Assembly (NCBI GenBank): GCA_041611735.1
Contig: JBFIML010000058.1
Coordinates: forward strand, 1 to 18,049
Source: Myxococcota bacterium
GTDB lineage: Bacteria > Myxococcota_A > UBA9160 > PR03
DNA: 18,049 nucleotides
Direction of reading: 5' to 3'
Shown: in pieces, positions 1,589 through 18,049 of the stretch
How positions within the stretch are numbered: position 1 is the first letter of the stretch
Layout of the letters: the number at the start of each line of letters is the position of its first letter
Made by a program: the position numbers and the translations under genes
The notes under the pieces: model-generated
What the model was told of the DNA's origin: nothing
Databases searched by the model: none
Seen by the model: only the letters and a program-made list of their open reading frames with translations

Positions 1589-1664
1589 TGGCGCCCCCGG
1601 CAGGACTCGAACCTGCGACACGCGGTTTAGGAAACCGCTGCTCTGTCCCCTGAGCTACGGGGGC
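1589..1664 (-). tRNA. tRNA-Arg, anticodon CCU
   Basis: GCCCCCGTAGCTCAGGGGACAGAGCAGCGGTTTCCTAAACCGCGTGTCGCAGGTTCGAGTCCTGCCGGGGGCGCCA: 7-bp acceptor stem, anticodon arm GCGGT-TTCCTAA-ACCGC, GTTCGAG T-loop, encoded CCA. Confidence 0.97.
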
Positions 1665-9132: not shown

Positions 9133-10653
9133 TCAGCCCGTGGCGGGCCGCAGCAGCACGGTGAAGATGGTGCCGCGCCGGCGCGTGCTCTCCACCTTGA
9201 TGGCTCCCCGCTGGGCCTGGAGGAGTCCCAGCACGGGCGCGAGCCCGAGGCCGCCACGCGGGGCGCGCGGGCCGAAGAAGGGCTCGAAGACGCGCTCGCG
9301 TTGGCGGGGGCCGAGGCCGAGGCTGCCGTCCTGCAGCTGGAGCGTCACGTACGGCCCCGCGCGCAGGCCGGCGCGCGGCTGCACATCGGCCAGGAAGGTG
9401 GCGTCCGCCTCCAGCAGGCCGGTGCGGATGCGGATGGTGTCCCGGGCGTCGTCGCCCGCCTCCGTCACCCGGCGCACCAGGCGTTGGATGACCTGGCGGA
9501 GCAGCCCGGGGTCCGCCAGGGCCGCCGGCAGATGTGCGGCCAGGTCGTAGCTGACCCGCGTGCGCTCGCCGAGCTCGCTCTCCAGCACGGGGGAGAGCTC
9601 GAGCAGGAGCGACGAGATGTCCACGGGGCGCGTGCGGGCCGTGGCCTCGCCGGCGCAGGCGCGCAGCTCGCCGGTCAGCTCCGCCAGGCGCAGCCCGGCG
9701 CGGCGGATGCGGCGCAGCTCCCCGGGCTCAGCCCCACGGCGCAGATCCATCCACAAGAGGTCCGAGGCTTCGAGCAGCGACGTGGCCAGGCCGTCCAGCT
9801 CCCCGGCGAGGCCGTGCGCCAGCTTCTCCGCCTCGCGGTTGGGCCCAAGCTTGCCGCTCGGGGGCACGGACGGGGCCGGCGCGTCCCGTCCGCTCAAGTC
9901 CACCAGCAGCGCCTGCACCGCCGGCTTCCCCTCGAGGAGCAGGGGGGCCGTGTGCACCAGGACCCGTGCCGGCGTGCCGTCCTTGCGAAGCATCTGGGCC
10001 TCGACGACCGCGGGCGTGATGCCCTCCTCCAGCACGGACCGGATGCGCTCTTCGGCCAGCGGGCGGGAATCGGGATGGACGAAATCGAACACCGGGCGGC
10101 CTACCAGCTCGCTCGCGTCCTCGCCGCCCCACAGGCGGACGGCAGCCGGGTTCACGTACACCACCTGGCCGCCGCGGTGAACGGCCACGGGATTCGGGCA
10201 CTGCTCCACCAGGGTCCGGTAGCGGGCCTCGCTCTCGGCCAGTGCCGTCTGCGCCTGCCTGCGCTCGGTGATGTCCGTGGCGATGGCCACGAACTCGAGG
10301 CGAGCCCCATCCTCGGAGGGGGCCGGCAGCACCTCGAGATCCACCCAGCGCCGCTCGCCCGAGCGGCTGGAGAGGCCGAGCTCCAGGCGCGCCGGCTCGC
10401 CGCGCTCCAGGCGCGCGCGCACGAAACGGACCGCGGCCCCGTCGATCTCGGAGTCGGCCAGGAGCGCGAGCATGGGCTTGCCGATCGCCTGCCCCGCCGG
10501 CTGCCCGGTCATCCGGCTCCAGGCCGCGTTCACCCACTCCACTGCGCCGTTCGCATCGCCCACCACGATGGCGCTGTCGGTGCGCGCGGCCAGCAGGGCC
10601 AGCTTGCGCGCCAGGCTGGCAGACGCCGGAAGCGGACGGCGGGACTCGGTCAT
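9133..10653 (-). CDS. PAS-PAS-histidine-kinase-like protein with degenerate catalytic motifs (probable pseudokinase), no receiver
   Basis: Two PAS/PAC units (WVNAAWSRMTG...DITERR; YVNPAAVRLWG...FVHPD). The kinase fold is recognisable (VFEPFF, GLGLA, GAIKVES, GTIFTVLL), but the H-box reads LAHGLAGELDGL and the N-box QRLVRRV. Start placed at ATG 10653. Confidence 0.85.
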   Translation of the reverse strand: MTESRRPLPASASLARKLALLAARTDSAIVVGDANGAVEWVNAAWSRMTGQPAGQAIGKPMLALLADSEIDGAAVRFVRARLERGEPARLELGLSSRSGERRWVDLEVLPAPSEDGARLEFVAIATDITERRQAQTALAESEARYRTLVEQCPNPVAVHRGGQVVYVNPAAVRLWGGEDASELVGRPVFDFVHPDSRPLAEERIRSVLEEGITPAVVEAQMLRKDGTPARVLVHTAPLLLEGKPAVQALLVDLSGRDAPAPSVPPSGKLGPNREAEKLAHGLAGELDGLATSLLEASDLLWMDLRRGAEPGELRRIRRAGLRLAELTGELRACAGEATARTRPVDISSLLLELSPVLESELGERTRVSYDLAAHLPAALADPGLLRQVIQRLVRRVTEAGDDARDTIRIRTGLLEADATFLADVQPRAGLRAGPYVTLQLQDGSLGLGPRQRERVFEPFFGPRAPRGGLGLAPVLGLLQAQRGAIKVESTRRRGTIFTVLLRPATG

Positions 10654-11006
10654 GGGGGGTGACCTTCCGTGCGGCAACGGCCCGTGGGCTGCTGCCGCGT
10701 GCAGACGTTGCGGGACGAGAGGCACGACATCAGGGACGTACGCGGCCGCGACAGCGATCCGTTCTTGCCCAGTCGTTCTTGGCCAGCCAGCGTCCGGAGC
10801 GGAAAAAGGACAACCTCTCGACAGCGCCCACTCTATCACGAACACCGGAGCCGGAACAGGTGGATCGTCAGGATCCTCAATGATCGAGCTGCTCCCCCCG
10901 GGAGCACGCTACGCTCGGGCGCCATGCCATTCGGGTATGCGGATACCGAGAAGCCGAATGCGACGTCGGGTCTCGTGCTGGTGGCGCCCGATGCGGCGGT
11001 GGACGG

Positions 11007-12809
11007 GTGACGGGGCTATCGGGGCGCGCGCGCGCCATCCCGGCGGCGGCGGGGCTCGCGATCGGGGGCGCGGCCGCGTGGATGCTCGCCGTGAGCTGGG
11101 GCCGCTGGCCGGACGGGCAGGTGGACTTCGGGCGCGAGCTGTATCTCCCCTGGCGCCTCAGCCAGGGCGACGTCCTGTACCGGGACGTGGTGAGCTCGTT
11201 CGGGCCCTTGTCGCCCTATCTGAATGCGTCGTGGTTCGAGCTCTTCGGCGTCGGCCTCTTCACCCTGGTCTGGTGCAACCTCGCGCTGCTGTTCGTCCTG
11301 CTGCTCGTGCTTCGGGCCCTGCTTCGAGCCGTCGGATCGCCCCTCTCCGCGACGGCTGCGCTCCTCGTCTTCGTCCTCCTGTTCGCCTTCTCGCAATACC
11401 TCGAGACCGGCAACTACAACTACGTGACCCCCTACTCCCACGAGCTCGTGCACGGGACCCTGCTGGCCCTGCTCGCCCTCGGGTCCCTGGGACGCTTCTT
11501 CGTACGACCCCGATGGACCTGGCTGGGGGCCTCGGGCCTCTTCCTGGGGCTCGCGTTCCTGACGAAGATCGAGCCCTGGCTGGCCGCGACGCTGGCCGTG
11601 GGCCTCGGGGTGCTGCTCTCCGGGTGGAGTCGCCGCCTCCCTCCGGGCAAGGCGCTGCGCGAAGCCGCCGTCGTGCTCCTCTGCGCCGCGCTCCCCGTTG
11701 CGGTGGCCACCGGCCTGCTGGCCCTGGCCATGCCCTGGCGCCAGGCCGTGGACGGGGTGCTGACCAACAGCCGCCTGACGCTCGACCCGGCCCTGAGCGG
11801 AGCTGCCTTCTTCCGGGTCGGCATGGGCATCGACGACCCGCGGGCGAGCCTCGCGGCCCTCGGCCTCGCCCTGGGGCGAATCGCGCTGGGCCTGCTGCCC
11901 GTGGCCGCGCTCGCCTACCTATGGAGGACTCCCCGGTGGCGGGGACTGGCCTGTGCGTCGACGGCCCTGGGGGTCCTGGCCGTGGCAGTGCCCATCGATT
12001 CCGATGCGTGGCTCGCGCTGGCACGTCCCCTGCCCGTCTTGATGCTCGGCTTCGGCGTGGTCTCGTTGCGCAACCTGGTGCGGGTGCGCAGCCGCGGAGG
12101 GTTCGATGCTCGCGAGGCCCTGCGCTTCAGCCTGTTCGTATTTGCTCTTGCCTTGCTCGGCAAGATTCTCCTGAACACGCGCTTCTACCACTACGGGTTC
12201 GTGCTGGCGATGCCCGCCGCCCTGCTCACCGTGGTCGCGTTGATCGAGTGGATCCCGGCCTACCTCACCCGCAGCGGAGGATGCGGGCGCATCTTCCAGG
12301 TCGCAGCCGCCGCGTGGCTGGCTTGCCTGGTGGGAACCACCCAGCTCGTGACGCTGGATGTCTACTCCCAAAAGACCCATCGAGTCGGATCGGGACGCGA
12401 TCGCTTCCTGGCCGACGAGCACGGCCGGCGGCTGCAGGAGATGCTGGAGGCCGTCCAGCGCCAGGTGGGCGAGGACCAGACGCTGGTGGTGCTTCCCGAA
12501 GGCATCATGCTGAACTACCTCGCCCGCCGGCGCAGCCCGCTCCGGCTCCACACCTTCCTGCCCTGGGAGTTCACGGTCTTCGGGGAGCAGACGATCCTGT
12601 TCGAGCTGATGGTCACCCGGCCGGATTTCGTGGTGGTGACACACCGGGACGCAACCGAGTACGGCCCTCGCTACTTCGGGCGGCACTACGGGCTTTCCGT
12701 GGCGCGCTGGATCACTCGCCACTACCGGCCCATCGACCAGGTTGGCGCTTCGCCCCTGGCGCAGCCCGCTCGCCCCGGTCTCCTGCTGCTGGCGCGAAGC
12801 GACGGCTAG
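11007..12809 (+). CDS. Polytopic membrane protein, probable GT-C (ArnT/PMT-like) glycosyltransferase
   Basis: An acidic motif follows TM1 (DGQVDFGRELY...LYRD...GPL). The protein has more than 10 hydrophobic segments, a G-x3-GLAFLTK motif and a soluble C-terminal domain (NYLARR...PDFVV). Confidence 0.65.
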   Translation: MTGLSGRARAIPAAAGLAIGGAAAWMLAVSWGRWPDGQVDFGRELYLPWRLSQGDVLYRDVVSSFGPLSPYLNASWFELFGVGLFTLVWCNLALLFVLLLVLRALLRAVGSPLSATAALLVFVLLFAFSQYLETGNYNYVTPYSHELVHGTLLALLALGSLGRFFVRPRWTWLGASGLFLGLAFLTKIEPWLAATLAVGLGVLLSGWSRRLPPGKALREAAVVLLCAALPVAVATGLLALAMPWRQAVDGVLTNSRLTLDPALSGAAFFRVGMGIDDPRASLAALGLALGRIALGLLPVAALAYLWRTPRWRGLACASTALGVLAVAVPIDSDAWLALARPLPVLMLGFGVVSLRNLVRVRSRGGFDAREALRFSLFVFALALLGKILLNTRFYHYGFVLAMPAALLTVVALIEWIPAYLTRSGGCGRIFQVAAAAWLACLVGTTQLVTLDVYSQKTHRVGSGRDRFLADEHGRRLQEMLEAVQRQVGEDQTLVVLPEGIMLNYLARRRSPLRLHTFLPWEFTVFGEQTILFELMVTRPDFVVVTHRDATEYGPRYFGRHYGLSVARWITRHYRPIDQVGASPLAQPARPGLLLLARSDG

Positions 12810-12829
12810 CCCAGGCGGGCGCGGACGGC

Positions 12830-14419
12830 CTAGGAGGCCTCGGGCCGCTTGCGCAGATCCACCACGTTCTTGAGCTCCGGGAACGTCTCGCCGAGCTTCT
12901 CGAGCATCCCGCTCGAAGAGCCGAAGGCCAGCAGCTCGCGCAGCAGCGGGAGCGCCGCCCCGGTTCCCAGCAGCGCCGAGTAGACCCGCGCCACCGGGTC
13001 GCCGGGGGCCGTGCCGTCGCCGCGGCCGTCGCCGGTCAGCCCCTTCACGTCGAGCACGCGGATCGAGTCGATGTGACGGGCCGGCTCCATGGCTTCCCGG
13101 GCGATCTCCGGCAGCCGTTCGATCAGCCGCAGGGCCACGTCCCGGTACACGAACTTCAGGTCCATGGCGTTCTCGGCCTTGCGCAGGAGCTGGGTCACCT
13201 GAGCCTCCGACTCGCCGTCCTTCAGCTTCGACTGGGCCAGGCGCTCGGTGGCGCGTGCCTTGCGCTCGGCCACCTCGAGCTCGTGCAGCGCCTGGATCAG
13301 GGCCACTTCCTTGGCGCGCTCCGCCTCGGCCTTCTGGGAGACCGTGGCCACGGCCTGCTCCGCCTCCTCGCGCTCCGCCTCCGCCTTGAGCCGCGCCTGC
13401 TCCTCGGCGATGCGCTTGCGCTCCGCCTGGAGCACCGCCACGGCCTTCTGGCGCTGGGCCTCCTCGATGGCACGCTCGCGCGCGATCTCGGCCAGGGAGC
13501 GGTCGCGCTCCTTCTCCTGCAGGTACAGCTCGCGGGCCAGCTCCGCCTCGCGGACCTGCCGCTCCTTGGCGATCTCCGCCTCGCGGGTCTGGAGATCCTG
13601 GGCGAAGCGGAAGCGCTCCCCTTCCGCCTGCTGCTCCACCCGGTGGCTCTCGACCTGGCGGAGCTGCTCGGCCTGGGCGAACTCCTGCTCGCGCTCCAGC
13701 TCGAGCTTGAGGCGCACCGACTCCACGTCCTTGCGCTTGATGGCGACCTCGGTGTCCCGCTCGATCTCGTTGCGCTCCCGCATGCGGGCGCTGGTCTGGG
13801 CGGTGATCTGGCGCAGGCCCTCGGCGTCGAAGATGTTGTTGGGGTCGAGCTGGCTCTTGTCGGTCTGATCGAGCGTGAAGAGCGCCACGTCCTCGATGCC
13901 GAGCCCGTTCTGGGCCACGGGTTCGGTGACCATGTCCTTGACCTTCAGGGCGTAGCCGCGCCGGTTCTCGTGCAGCTCCACCAGCTCCATCTGTGCCGCC
14001 GCGCTGCGCATGGCGGAAACGAGCTTCTCCTCCACCAGGGCCTTGACGCCCTCGGCGGAGAAGCTCTTGTCGCCGAGCGAGCGGCTGGCGGCCTCGATCA
14101 TCGCATCGTCGGGAAGGATCTTGACGTAGAACTCGGCGCCGAGATCCACCCGATAGCGGTCCTTGGTGATGAAGGCGTCCCGGTTGCGGCGCAGGATCTC
14201 CACCTTGAAGGTCTCGAGAGACAGCCACTGGATGTTGTGCACGATGGGCAGGATGAAGGCGCCCGCGTCGGTGACCACGCGACGGCCGCCCAGCCCGGTG
14301 CGGATGTAGGCCATGTTGGCCGGCACCTTCACGTAGAGGCCCCGGAACAGGCCGATCACGGCCAGCGCGAAGACCACGGCGACGCCGAGGCCGATCAGGA
14401 TCCAGATCCAGGCGGGCAT
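12830..14419 (-). CDS. SPFH/flotillin-family membrane protein (YqiK-like)
   Basis: N-terminal TM, SPFH signatures (RTGLGG, FITKDRYRVD...FYVK, DQT...NNIFDAEGL), a long Glu/Ala/Arg coiled coil and a C-terminal IDSIRVLDV. RBS GGAGGA. Confidence 0.9.
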   Translation of the reverse strand: MPAWIWILIGLGVAVVFALAVIGLFRGLYVKVPANMAYIRTGLGGRRVVTDAGAFILPIVHNIQWLSLETFKVEILRRNRDAFITKDRYRVDLGAEFYVKILPDDAMIEAASRSLGDKSFSAEGVKALVEEKLVSAMRSAAAQMELVELHENRRGYALKVKDMVTEPVAQNGLGIEDVALFTLDQTDKSQLDPNNIFDAEGLRQITAQTSARMRERNEIERDTEVAIKRKDVESVRLKLELEREQEFAQAEQLRQVESHRVEQQAEGERFRFAQDLQTREAEIAKERQVREAELARELYLQEKERDRSLAEIARERAIEEAQRQKAVAVLQAERKRIAEEQARLKAEAEREEAEQAVATVSQKAEAERAKEVALIQALHELEVAERKARATERLAQSKLKDGESEAQVTQLLRKAENAMDLKFVYRDVALRLIERLPEIAREAMEPARHIDSIRVLDVKGLTGDGRGDGTAPGDPVARVYSALLGTGAALPLLRELLAFGSSSGMLEKLGETFPELKNVVDLRKRPEAS

Positions 14420-14470
14420 GTGGGTTCCTCCGGAGCCGCGGGAGCGCCGCGGCGTGGTGCCGACGGGGAG

Positions 14471-16234
14471 CTAGCGCCCCTCCTCCACGCGCAGGTCGCT
14501 CGGCTGCGCGCCGTACACCTCGAGCAGGTAGGCGAGACGCTCGCGGGTTGCGGCCGGGTCGCCGCCCCGGAAGCGGAAGGTCGTGCCCTCGAAGGAGCGC
14601 ACCTGGGGATGGATGTCCCGGAAGGCGGGCGGCGCCTTGGTGAAGTCCTGGGCGCAGAGGTCGCGCCACCAGCGGGTGAGGGTGCGGGGCTCCACGCCCT
14701 CCACCACGATCTGGAAGGGCTTCGAGCCGTCGCCGCCCGCCAGGGCCCCGGCCTCGCCGCTGGCCGGGCGCGGCGGCTCCCGCCGCACCGGGCGCCAGGC
14801 CGGCGACAGGGACGCCGGCTCGCTGGCCGGTCCTTCCGCGATGCGGGCCAGGGCTGCCGCCGCCGAAGAGCGCGTCTGCCGCGGCGCCCGCTGGCCCACC
14901 GGCGACCCGGAGCCCGCCGTGGCATAGGCGCTCTCCGCGTGCAGGGTCAGGTCCAGGCCCGCCTCCTCGTCCTCGTCCTCCACGCGCAGCCCCACCACGG
15001 AGTTCACCAGGCCGAGGATCAGGAAGGTGCCGACCAGGCACAGGCCGATGGTCGCGCCGATCCCCTCCAGCTGGGTCAGCAGCTGCTGGGGATTGCCGGT
15101 GAAGAAGCCGCCATCGGAGAGGGCCGGCGAGGCAAACAGGCCGGTGGCGATGGCGCCCCAGGTGCCGCCCACCCCGTGCACGCCCACCACGTCCAGGGCG
15201 TCGTCGTAGCCGACCCGGTTCTTCCAGTTGCACGCCTTGTAGCACAGCCAGCCCGCTACGAGGCCGATCAGGATGGCCGCCCACGGCTCCACGAAGCCTG
15301 CTGCCGGCGTGATGGCCACGAGCCCTGCCACGGCGCCGGTGGCGGCCCCCACCGCCGTGGGCTTGCCCTTCCCCACCCACTCGCTGAAGAGCCAGCCGAT
15401 CACCGCCGAGCCCGCGGCGGTGTTCGTGTTCACGAAGGCGACCGTGGCGATGCCGTTGGCCGCCAGCGCGCTGCCGGCATTGAAGCCGAACCATCCCACC
15501 CACAGCAGCGCGGCCCCGGCCACCACGAAGGGCACGTTGTGGGGCGGCATGGGTTCGCGGCCGTGGCCCCGGCGCCGGCCGATCATGGCCGCGGCCACCA
15601 GCGCCGAGGTGCCCGACGAGATGTGCACTACCGTGCCGCCGGCGAAGTCCAGGGCCCCGCGGGCGCCGAGCCAGCCCCCGCCCCACACCCAGTGAGCGAG
15701 CGGGGAGTAGACGAAGGTGGACCAGAAGATCACCAGCAGCAGGAACGCCGAGAACTTCATGCGCTCGGCGAAGGAGCCGACGATGAGCGCCGGCGTGATG
15801 ATGGCGAACATGAGCTGGAACACCATGAACGCCTGATCGGGGATGGATTCGGATACCGTGCCGCGCTCCCAGCTCACCCCCTGCAGCGCGAACAGGCTGA
15901 GATCGCCCACCACGCCTCCGTGGTCCGGGCCGAAGGCGATCGAGTAGCCCCACAGCACCCAGGTCACGCTCACCACCGCCGCCGTGGCCAGGCACTGCAT
16001 GAGGACCGAGAGCACGTTCTTGGTGCGGACCAGGCCCCCGTAGAAGAGCCCGAGGCCCGGGATCGTCATCATCAGCACGATGGCCGAGCTGGTGAGGACC
16101 CAGGCGACGTCCCCGCTGTCGATCGCGACGGGCGCGGCAGCAGGCGCCGCCTCCTGGGCGAAGGCGTTGCCCGCCCCCAGCAAGAACGCGGCCCAGGTGG
16201 CGATGGCGAGGCGACGGCGCAGCCGGTGGCCCAC
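14471..16234 (-). CDS. amtB: Ammonium transporter (Amt family) with a C-terminal extension
   Basis: GTG start at 16234 after AAGGAGG and a signal peptide (AFA-QE). Amt motifs PGLGLFYGG, FQLMFA, HWVWGGGWL, DFAGGTVVH, WFGFNAGS, DDALDVVGVHG and EEAGLD...H-E-AY, then 150 further residues. Confidence 0.95.
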   Translation of the reverse strand: MGHRLRRRLAIATWAAFLLGAGNAFAQEAAPAAAPVAIDSGDVAWVLTSSAIVLMMTIPGLGLFYGGLVRTKNVLSVLMQCLATAAVVSVTWVLWGYSIAFGPDHGGVVGDLSLFALQGVSWERGTVSESIPDQAFMVFQLMFAIITPALIVGSFAERMKFSAFLLLVIFWSTFVYSPLAHWVWGGGWLGARGALDFAGGTVVHISSGTSALVAAAMIGRRRGHGREPMPPHNVPFVVAGAALLWVGWFGFNAGSALAANGIATVAFVNTNTAAGSAVIGWLFSEWVGKGKPTAVGAATGAVAGLVAITPAAGFVEPWAAILIGLVAGWLCYKACNWKNRVGYDDALDVVGVHGVGGTWGAIATGLFASPALSDGGFFTGNPQQLLTQLEGIGATIGLCLVGTFLILGLVNSVVGLRVEDEDEEAGLDLTLHAESAYATAGSGSPVGQRAPRQTRSSAAAALARIAEGPASEPASLSPAWRPVRREPPRPASGEAGALAGGDGSKPFQIVVEGVEPRTLTRWWRDLCAQDFTKAPPAFRDIHPQVRSFEGTTFRFRGGDPAATRERLAYLLEVYGAQPSDLRVEEGR

Positions 16235-16293
16235 GAGGGATCCCTCCTTGCCGGGCAGACGGGCGCCCGCAGTGATGACCCCGGGAGGCCAAG

Positions 16294-16310
16294 AGCAAGC
16301 CATGTGCCAA
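16294..16310 (-). promoter_or_regulatory. Sigma54 (-24/-12) promoter of amtB
   Basis: The minus strand reads TTGGCAC-ATGGC-TTGCT, an exact TGGCAC-N5-TTGC, about 60 bp upstream of the amtB start and correctly oriented. Confidence 0.9.
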
Positions 16311-16368
16311 ATCCGACACGCGTGGGACGCGCTCTTGTGCCCGTTGCCGCACACGAACCGCCCGCGTG

Positions 16369-16407
16369 TGCCCGCCTCTTGGGCACCCAGTGCCCGCGCC
16401 TTGGGCA
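16369..16407. promoter_or_regulatory. Two tandem NtrC-like enhancer palindromes (TGCCC-N7-GGGCA)
   Basis: TGCCC-gcctctt-GGGCA (16369-16385) and TGCCC-gcgcctt-GGGCA (16391-16407), centres 22 bp apart, at about -94 and -116 from the inferred TSS. They resemble the NtrC consensus TGCAC-N7-GTGCA. Confidence 0.75.
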
Positions 16408-16417
16408 GCGGGCGGGG

Positions 16418-18049
<1,632 letters not shown>

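Follow-up and report, generated by a model that had tools for sequence, protein, structure and literature searches.

A putatively nitrogen-regulated gene pair of an ammonium transporter and a flotillin in uncultured bacteria

In a stretch of 18,049 nucleotides from a Myxococcota bacterium (contig JBFIML010000058.1 of assembly GCA_041611735.1; this whole stretch is called the window below), a gene for an ammonium transporter (Amt) is followed on the same strand by a gene for a flotillin, a protein with an SPFH domain. The Amt ends in a conserved C-terminal domain (CTD) that is joined to the channel by a long linker. Gene order indicates that this pairing recurs in other uncultured bacteria, and the neighbourhoods of CTD-bearing Amts point to one family with two architectures, in which Amts on a short tether are accompanied by GlnK and those on a long tether by flotillin. 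The case for a functional partnership between the Amt and the flotillin is, in our judgement, evenly balanced. The novelty is that of an SPFH-partner operon with a new partner and of an Amt operon with a new accessory gene; a literature search, for which the sources were available in part, revealed no earlier account of a prokaryotic Amt-flotillin pair.

The unit lies on the minus strand at window positions 12830-16407 and reads, in order, two enhancer palindromes, a sigma54 promoter, the Amt gene, a 51-nt spacer and the flotillin gene (Table 1). These elements had been listed in the original prediction, which was made from the letters of the DNA alone, and checks of open reading frames (ORFs), Pfam matches and patterns located all of them. 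The palindromes came from a pattern search, their 5-nt arms not being reported by general repeat finding. They are spaced by 22 nt, about two helical turns; 0.07 copies of TGCCC-N7-GGGCA are expected in the window, and none of 200 shuffles contained two. The promoter, TGGCACATGGCTTGCT, has the -24 GG and -12 GC of the consensus at the correct spacing and is the sole match to the sigma54 consensus in the window (0.03 expected; 6 of 200 shuffles with one). The genome to which the window belongs (G000; 4.09 Mb, 95% complete) carries one rpoN and about 15 sigma54 activator genes. A look-up of sequencing runs gave 10 holders of DNA type, in 6 studies, and none of RNA type. A third inverted repeat, GGGCAC-N3-GTGCCC, lies between the two palindromes at window 16381-16395.

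Table 1. Features of the Amt-flotillin unit, with positions in the window
Feature	Positions	Strand	Description
Distal enhancer palindrome, TGCCC-N7-GGGCA	16391..16407		about 98 nt 5' of the -24 element; starts 11 nt past the kinase stop
Proximal enhancer palindrome, TGCCC-N7-GGGCA	16369..16385		about 76 nt 5' of the -24 element
Sigma54 -24/-12 promoter, TGGCAC-N5-TTGCT, TGGCACATGGCTTGCT	16294..16309	-	pattern match
Amt gene	14471..16234	-	587 aa + stop; GTG start after AAGGAGGG; signal-peptide-like N-terminus
Amt core, residues 44-437	14924..16105	-	Pfam Ammonium_transp
Linker, Pro/Ala/Arg-rich, about 67 aa	14723..14923	-	between Amt core and CTD
CTD, residues 505-587, 83 aa	14474..14722	-	conserved domain at the Amt C-terminus
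Spacer, 51 nt	14420..14470	-	GGAGGA ribosome-binding site 8 nt before the flotillin ATG
Flotillin, SPFH2, YqiK/FloT class, 529 aa	12830..14419	-	membrane helix 3-28, SPFH about 36-185, long helix 196-434, Flot domain

Across the genome G000 we counted 17 strict sigma54 promoter matches and 11 TGCCC-N7-GGGCA sites. Four of the 11 palindromes lie at most 200 nt 5' of just three sigma54 promoters, where 0.009 are expected, and the combination is found only at glnB-glnA (one site), at a canonical amtB-glnK (one site) and at the Amt-flotillin operon (two sites), the other seven palindromes having no sigma54 promoter nearby. The first two belong to a core nitrogen cluster (contig C27, 20000-30000; locus L012) in which Pfam identifies a porin (BBP2), glnB, glnA, amtB and glnK, with a sigma54 promoter and a palindrome before glnB and again before amtB. 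Because palindrome and promoter coincide in this genome only at core nitrogen genes and at this operon, nitrogen regulation of the Amt-flotillin unit is well supported by its regulatory DNA, in agreement with the nitrogen-type sigma54 unit proposed originally. The claim that neither neighbour of amtB is a PII gene also held: the 5' neighbour encodes a PAS-HisKA-HATPase-REC hybrid histidine kinase (16418-18049, minus strand), the 3' neighbour is the flotillin gene, and the contig is without a PII match, the three PII genes of G000 lying on contigs C27 and C112. The wider picture of a system without GlnK stood in part, in that no PII gene lies beside amt, but the genome carries the canonical amtB-glnK and glnB-glnA on another contig. 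In a second genome with the pair (G017), a PII gene has a palindrome and a sigma54 promoter, and the amt-flotillin pair has TGGCACATCCCTTGCT and a one-mismatch palindrome about 110 nt 5'; in a third (G212), the PII gene has a sigma54 promoter. Variants of the form GGGCA-N5-TGCC were seen near sigma54 promoters of G017 and G212.

The layout between the two genes suggests that they are probably co-transcribed. The 51-bp spacer has the good ribosome-binding site (GGAGGA) that had been predicted, and the small hairpin noted there is not unusually stable (z = +1.0; 171 of 200 shuffled sequences folded equally well or better). Within positions 12500-16600, a consensus scan restricted to the sigma70 type found no sigma70-like promoter, and the minus strand has no terminator-like site, the single one in the region being on the other strand, inside the Amt gene. 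An Rfam scan of the window yielded only a tRNA, and the amt leader has no riboswitch. We consider it very improbable that the flotillin gene is transcribed separately from a promoter of its own and that its position beside amt has no regulatory meaning. Such a reading draws on the sigma70-type scope of the promoter scans and on the amt of G212, which has no clear sigma54 promoter 5', but the spacers are short (51 nt in G000, 87 nt in G017 and 31 nt in G212), have ribosome-binding sites and are free of promoter and terminator signals, and all cases seen agree in gene order and strand.

The upstream gene encodes a member of the Amt/Mep/Rh family (PF00909), with a match to Pfam Ammonium_transp over profile positions 1-399 (E = 2.3e-126, 422 bits), a match to TIGR00836 of 468 bits against a cut-off of 343, and a match to the Amt-1 structure 2b2f at E = 4.4e-110. 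Its likely start is the GTG at 16234, which is preceded by AAGGAGGG and aligns with the starts of homologues. The motifs ALDFAGGTVVH and GVHGVGG align identically with 2b2f and are invariant in the homologue alignment; we take DFAGGxVVH and the second His of HGxGG to be the conserved Amt pore residues. A functional ammonium channel is the best explanation of these matches. The protein falls below the cut-off of the AmtB equivalog NF007947 (403 bits vs 657) and is only 32% identical to the glnK-linked Amt of the same genome.

No Pfam family matches the CTD, even when E values up to 10 are allowed. Its AlphaFold2 model (predicted local distance difference test, pLDDT, 92) has the order beta-alpha-alpha-beta-beta-alpha-beta of a ferredoxin-like fold; Foldseek returned nothing at E <= 1e-3, and the best VIA-align score (Z = 5.8) is within the chance range. 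The many ferredoxin-like folds that aligned include ACT and RAM domains (Z = 4.9-5.5). An exhaustive profile search of proteins gave 166 clusters. When 15 of the proteins found were checked with Pfam, all 10 that matched in a single stretch were Amts, and the five that matched in several stretches were TPR or other unrelated repeat proteins, none of them an Amt, and were rejected as true relatives. The CTD is fused to an Amt core in all testable loci (75/75 and 49/49). Fusions of Amts with sensor domains are known, and the window protein could be part of a sensor platform, in which the CTD-Amt senses ammonium, its ACT/RAM-like CTD is the binding site for a metabolite or signalling partner, and the flotillin scaffolds the complex. 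The ferredoxin-like CTD with its weak ACT and RAM neighbours would suit this, as would the hybrid histidine kinase directly 5' of amt in the window and in a relative of the same family (G003). We nevertheless rate it as improbable: the structural matches are generic, the kinase is not conserved 5' of amt in G017 or G212, and the Amt core keeps its pore motifs and scores as a regular Amt.

The downstream protein belongs to the flotillins, matching Band_7 (PF01145, E = 3.2e-13, 50.5 bits) and Flot (PF15975, E = 2.1e-20, 73.5 bits) above both cut-offs, while it stays far below that of the FloT equivalog NF058507 (55.8 bits vs 700). A search of solved structures by sequence gave nothing at E <= 0.001. 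The AlphaFold2 model (mean pLDDT 75.7) comprises an N-terminal membrane helix, the SPFH domain and a very long helix, and Foldseek places it with the flotillin cages, the best match being 9bq2 (E = 1.8e-14) and both 9bq2 and 9l3g aligning at about 1e-14 over 450-480 columns. Prohibitin, HflK/C, stomatin and QmcA-YbbJ are the next matches.

The original prediction had staked itself on conservation of the adjacency in relatives, and such conservation was found. Among 193 genomes of the window's order, the CTD profile matches in three, which belong to three families (G000, G017 and G212), and in all three a flotillin gene lies directly 3' of the CTD-Amt; the flotillins of G017 and G212 are 61-78% identical to that of the window, and the three loci have nothing in common beyond the two genes. 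Searched in 41 relatives, the flotillin matches only in G000, G017 and G027, and that of G027 is 41% identical with no Amt nearby. The 16 other genomes of the window's family gave no flotillin match.

When public contigs were scanned with the CTD alignment, we obtained 79 genome loci, mostly from Planctomycetota (Gemmataceae), and 80 metagenome loci, some of which are duplicated between the two collections so that their counts are not fully independent. Where at least 700 nt of downstream room was available, a PII gene was found within 700 nt 3' of the CTD-Amt in 61 of 72 genome cases and 62 of 67 metagenome cases (123/139), and these are the short-linker forms. A flotillin gene stands in this position in one genome (L013, which is G017) and on one metagenome contig (L092), and these are the only scanned loci whose CTD is at least 65% identical to that of the window. 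The linker measures 24-31 aa in all 93 glnK-linked rows, 67-72 aa in the three flotillin-linked genome rows and 73-91 aa in seven further members of the clade. Three planctomycete loci (L019, L061 and L074) carry tandem duplicates of the CTD-Amt, with a single glnK after the second copy in L019 and L061.

Clusters of long-form Amts extend this pattern. For 11 of the 19 clusters at 61% identity or more, the size of the longest contig equals exactly that of a close flotillin cluster (36620, 3670899, 9413, 20903, 7234, 13188, 7916, 4350, 9451, 19980 and 4735 nt), an equality that points to the same contig, not to adjacency. A twelfth shared size, of 2220 nt, was rejected as a coincidence, because such a contig is too short for both genes. 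A second, more remote group comprises long Amts with 59-67% identity in the core and 31-39% in the CTD (linker 62-75 aa in 12 of 13). It shares contig sizes of 13244, 53323, 80982 and 20861 with flotillins of 54-55% identity, one of which carries the name Candidatus Limnocylindrales, a hint that the pair extends outside the phylum of the window. A separate case (P0359 / P0196) is a 481-aa Amt with no detectable CTD, which shares the contig size 6953 with a partial close flotillin and may be a frameshifted long form.

The flotillins of the phylum have another usual neighbour. A flotillin-like match is present in 38 of 401 phylum genomes; 29 loci were inspected besides that of the window, and eight of the 38 matches were without a locus. 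An Amt gene lies 5' of the flotillin in one of the 29, that of G212. In the other 28 loci, whose flotillins are at most 44% identical to that of the window, YqiJ_N lies directly 5' in 18 (16 above the Pfam cut-off) and an Amt in none. Neither YqiJ_N nor YqiJ_OB was found in G000 (95% complete), G017 (68%) or G212 (91%), the control genome G027 being positive, and G000 has NfeD matches on contig C4 and, next to further SPFH genes, on contig C13, with none on the contig of the Amt-flotillin pair. The flotillin thus lacks an NfeD/YqiJ partner, as had been predicted. Because 18 of 28 related loci have YqiJ_N 5' and the Amt-flotillin genomes have no YqiJ match, the Amt holds the place that is usual for YqiJ. 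NfeD2-SPFH2 operons are a published rule (PMC2636767), and the counts in this phylum agree with it.

By core sequence, the nearest relatives of the window Amt lack the CTD. These Amts, about 450 aa long and 66-85% identical, are common in the order (G003, G029, G020, G026, G034 and G018). In all six orthologues the 1.5 kb 3' of amt is free of PII and flotillin genes, and five have a strict sigma54 promoter. Because the CTD-less relatives have neither gene, the flotillin seems to track the long-linker CTD and not the loss of glnK as such. The earlier notion of a flotillin instead of GlnK accordingly describes the CTD-Amt family, which has glnK 3' in 123/139, but not the closest CTD-less core relatives. 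In many genomes of the order (L217, L218, L220-L223 and others) we also saw sigma54-driven orphan Amts with no glnK within 1.5 kb, and a few Amts of 55-57% identity in the order are flanked by PII genes.

One of the CTD-less relatives, G003 of the same family, is syntenic with the window, with 72.5% nucleotide identity in the hybrid kinase, 83.7% in the Amt core and 71% in a PAS kinase. Its Amt ends in ...SGTPVMER at the point where the window protein runs into the linker, and the nucleotide match ends at window 14898. Relative to G003 the window has about 3.8 kb extra, consisting of the linker, the CTD, the flotillin and a convergent ORF (11007-12809). Along the Amt core the recombination signal is weak: G003 is the closer sequence in the N-terminal bins, and the last two bins show hardly any difference.

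A tree of 90 rows built from the Amt core only (IQ-TREE, quick search) mixes long and short forms within one clade of 52 rows (support 96), in which the basal rows are long forms and whose sister is a planctomycete clade with CTD plus glnK. We counted 13 architecture changes on this tree, and because the long and short forms intermingle, the extension has been gained or lost several times. A first tree, made from the CTD only, had shown one clade arising from glnK-linked ancestors, as if glnK had been replaced by flotillin once; this reading was dropped after the CTD-less relatives were added. Wherever the context is known, CTD and flotillin are jointly present or jointly absent.

The flanks of the unit hold genes of other kinds. 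The PAS histidine kinase gene lies on the far side of the flotillin (9133-10845, minus strand); both kinases are syntenic in G003 and absent at the G017 and G212 loci. The convergent ORF (plus strand, 600 aa) has no Pfam or NCBIfam match. In a protein atlas it adjoins clusters in which about a quarter of the members carry PMT_2 (membrane glycosyltransferase) and which are commonest in Planctomycetota (score 1.00). The tRNA gene of the Rfam scan is at window 1592-1664 on the minus strand (65.4 bits).

We infer that the two proteins work together because the pair recurs, both partners are swapped relative to the usual operons, CTD and flotillin are present or absent jointly, and the length of the linker switches with the partner. 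In such a partnership, nitrogen limitation would bring sigma54 and an NtrC-type activator, bound at the TGCCC-N7-GGGCA sites, to switch on the two-gene operon. Its first product would be an Amt channel with a small ferredoxin-like CTD on a long, flexible cytoplasmic tether, and its second a flotillin-type SPFH scaffold. The N-out/C-in topology of Amts would place the CTD in the cytoplasm, and the positive-inside rule would place most of the flotillin there as well. Flotillin oligomers could then corral Amt trimers into a microdomain in which both act as one membrane unit, the tethered CTD being the likeliest adaptor between them. The scaffold would act as the accessory partner, as GlnK does in the short-linker operons, and the Amt would take the operon place of YqiJ/NfeD. 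A cytoplasmic flotillin corral with the CTD as adaptor would be the most economical mechanism. A more specific form of the proposal seems rather unlikely to us, namely that the long-linker CTD-Amt and the flotillin form a GlnK-independent uptake microdomain, in which the SPFH cage encloses Amt trimers, captures their CTDs and gates or stabilises the channel, as a bacterial counterpart of RhAG-stomatin and UT-B-stomatin and as one cassette that was gained or lost in at least two phyla.

Several points weigh against a partnership. Co-transcription, same-side topology, physical association and an effect on transport are all steps that we infer, and the three PII genes of G000 could regulate this Amt in trans. 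In G212 the amt-flotillin pair has no palindrome, and the spacing of its sigma54-like site (GGGCAAAAGCCCTTGCA, L203 6395-6411) exceeds the consensus by one base; the regulation of the pair there may differ from that in the window. The CTD occurs in Planctomycetota without flotillin, and because of this the CTD is not a dedicated flotillin adaptor. The equal contig sizes, as said, speak for a common contig and not for neighbouring genes. The number of independent pairs is one on well-supported branches and three on all branches, and because of these small numbers the joint presence or absence of CTD and flotillin is without statistical power; the pattern could rest on a few events spread by horizontal transfer of one block.

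This last point leads to the explanation that we regard as somewhat unlikely, yet ahead of the other alternatives, in which the genes are co-expressed with independent functions, the flotillin being a general membrane or stress protein useful in nitrogen starvation that was joined to amt once and moves with it as a block. The patchy distribution of the pair (3/193 order genomes, in three families) without shared flanks fits block transfer, as does the single well-supported independent transition. The extra segment of the window also carries an unrelated convergent ORF, because of which the 3.8 kb could be a mixed insertion. Against independent functions, the two genes stay adjacent even where the flotillins are 61% identical, and apparently also in a second clade, whose CTDs are 31-39% identical; only G000, G017 and G027 among the 41 relatives have the flotillin at all; and CTD and flotillin come and go together, with a linker whose length switches with the partner.

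Among known systems, the glnK-amtB operon of E. coli and most prokaryotes, in which the PII protein GlnK gates the Amt, is likewise a nitrogen-regulated pair of an Amt and an accessory protein on the cytoplasmic side, and the short-linker relatives of the window Amt keep glnK at the same downstream position. It differs in that the window unit has a membrane-anchored flotillin of 529 aa instead of a PII protein of 112 aa and an Amt with an extra tethered domain, and no sensing step (uridylylation, 2-oxoglutarate binding) can be assigned to the window unit. HflK/C-FtsH and QmcA-YbbJ are bacterial SPFH cages with a defined membrane-protein client, and the model of the window flotillin matches them by fold, but their clients are a protease or an NfeD protein, and HflK/C faces the periplasm. 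NfeD2-SPFH2 operons (yqiJ-yqiK in E. coli, yuaF-floT in B. subtilis; PMC2636767) resemble the window in having a flotillin-class SPFH gene directly 3' of a gene for a polytopic membrane protein on the same strand, and in a polytopic partner with a small cytoplasmic beta-rich or alpha/beta domain, whereas the partner in the window is an Amt channel with an unrelated ferredoxin-like domain. In its available part, the text of that paper contains neither 'ammoni' nor 'transporter'. The closest parallel by client is found in human cells, where stomatin domes enclose AQP1 tetramers and UT-B trimers, and where mutations in the Amt homologue RhAG accompany the loss of stomatin in overhydrated stomatocytosis, a link that had been put forward with the original prediction and is described in PMC12407830. 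Similar to the pair proposed here, the stomatin dome is an SPFH cage with oligomeric channels for small nitrogenous or neutral solutes and has an Amt homologue tied to an SPFH protein. It is, however, a eukaryotic, post-translational association seen by cryo-EM and genetics, with no operon, and stomatin and flotillin belong to different SPFH branches.

Few clients have been identified for the ubiquitous SPFH scaffolds, and a genetic tie joins the Amt homologue RhAG to stomatin in human red cells. An Amt-flotillin operon, if the two are hard-wired, would be a simple genetic system in which the effect of an SPFH cage on a channel could be tested, and it offers a nitrogen-regulated promoter together with natural variants that lack the CTD and the flotillin together (as in G003). 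The analysis also defines an unnamed family of Amt C-terminal domains, with a short tether and GlnK in one architecture and a long tether and flotillin in the other, and these architectures point to an accessory control of ammonium transport beyond PII.

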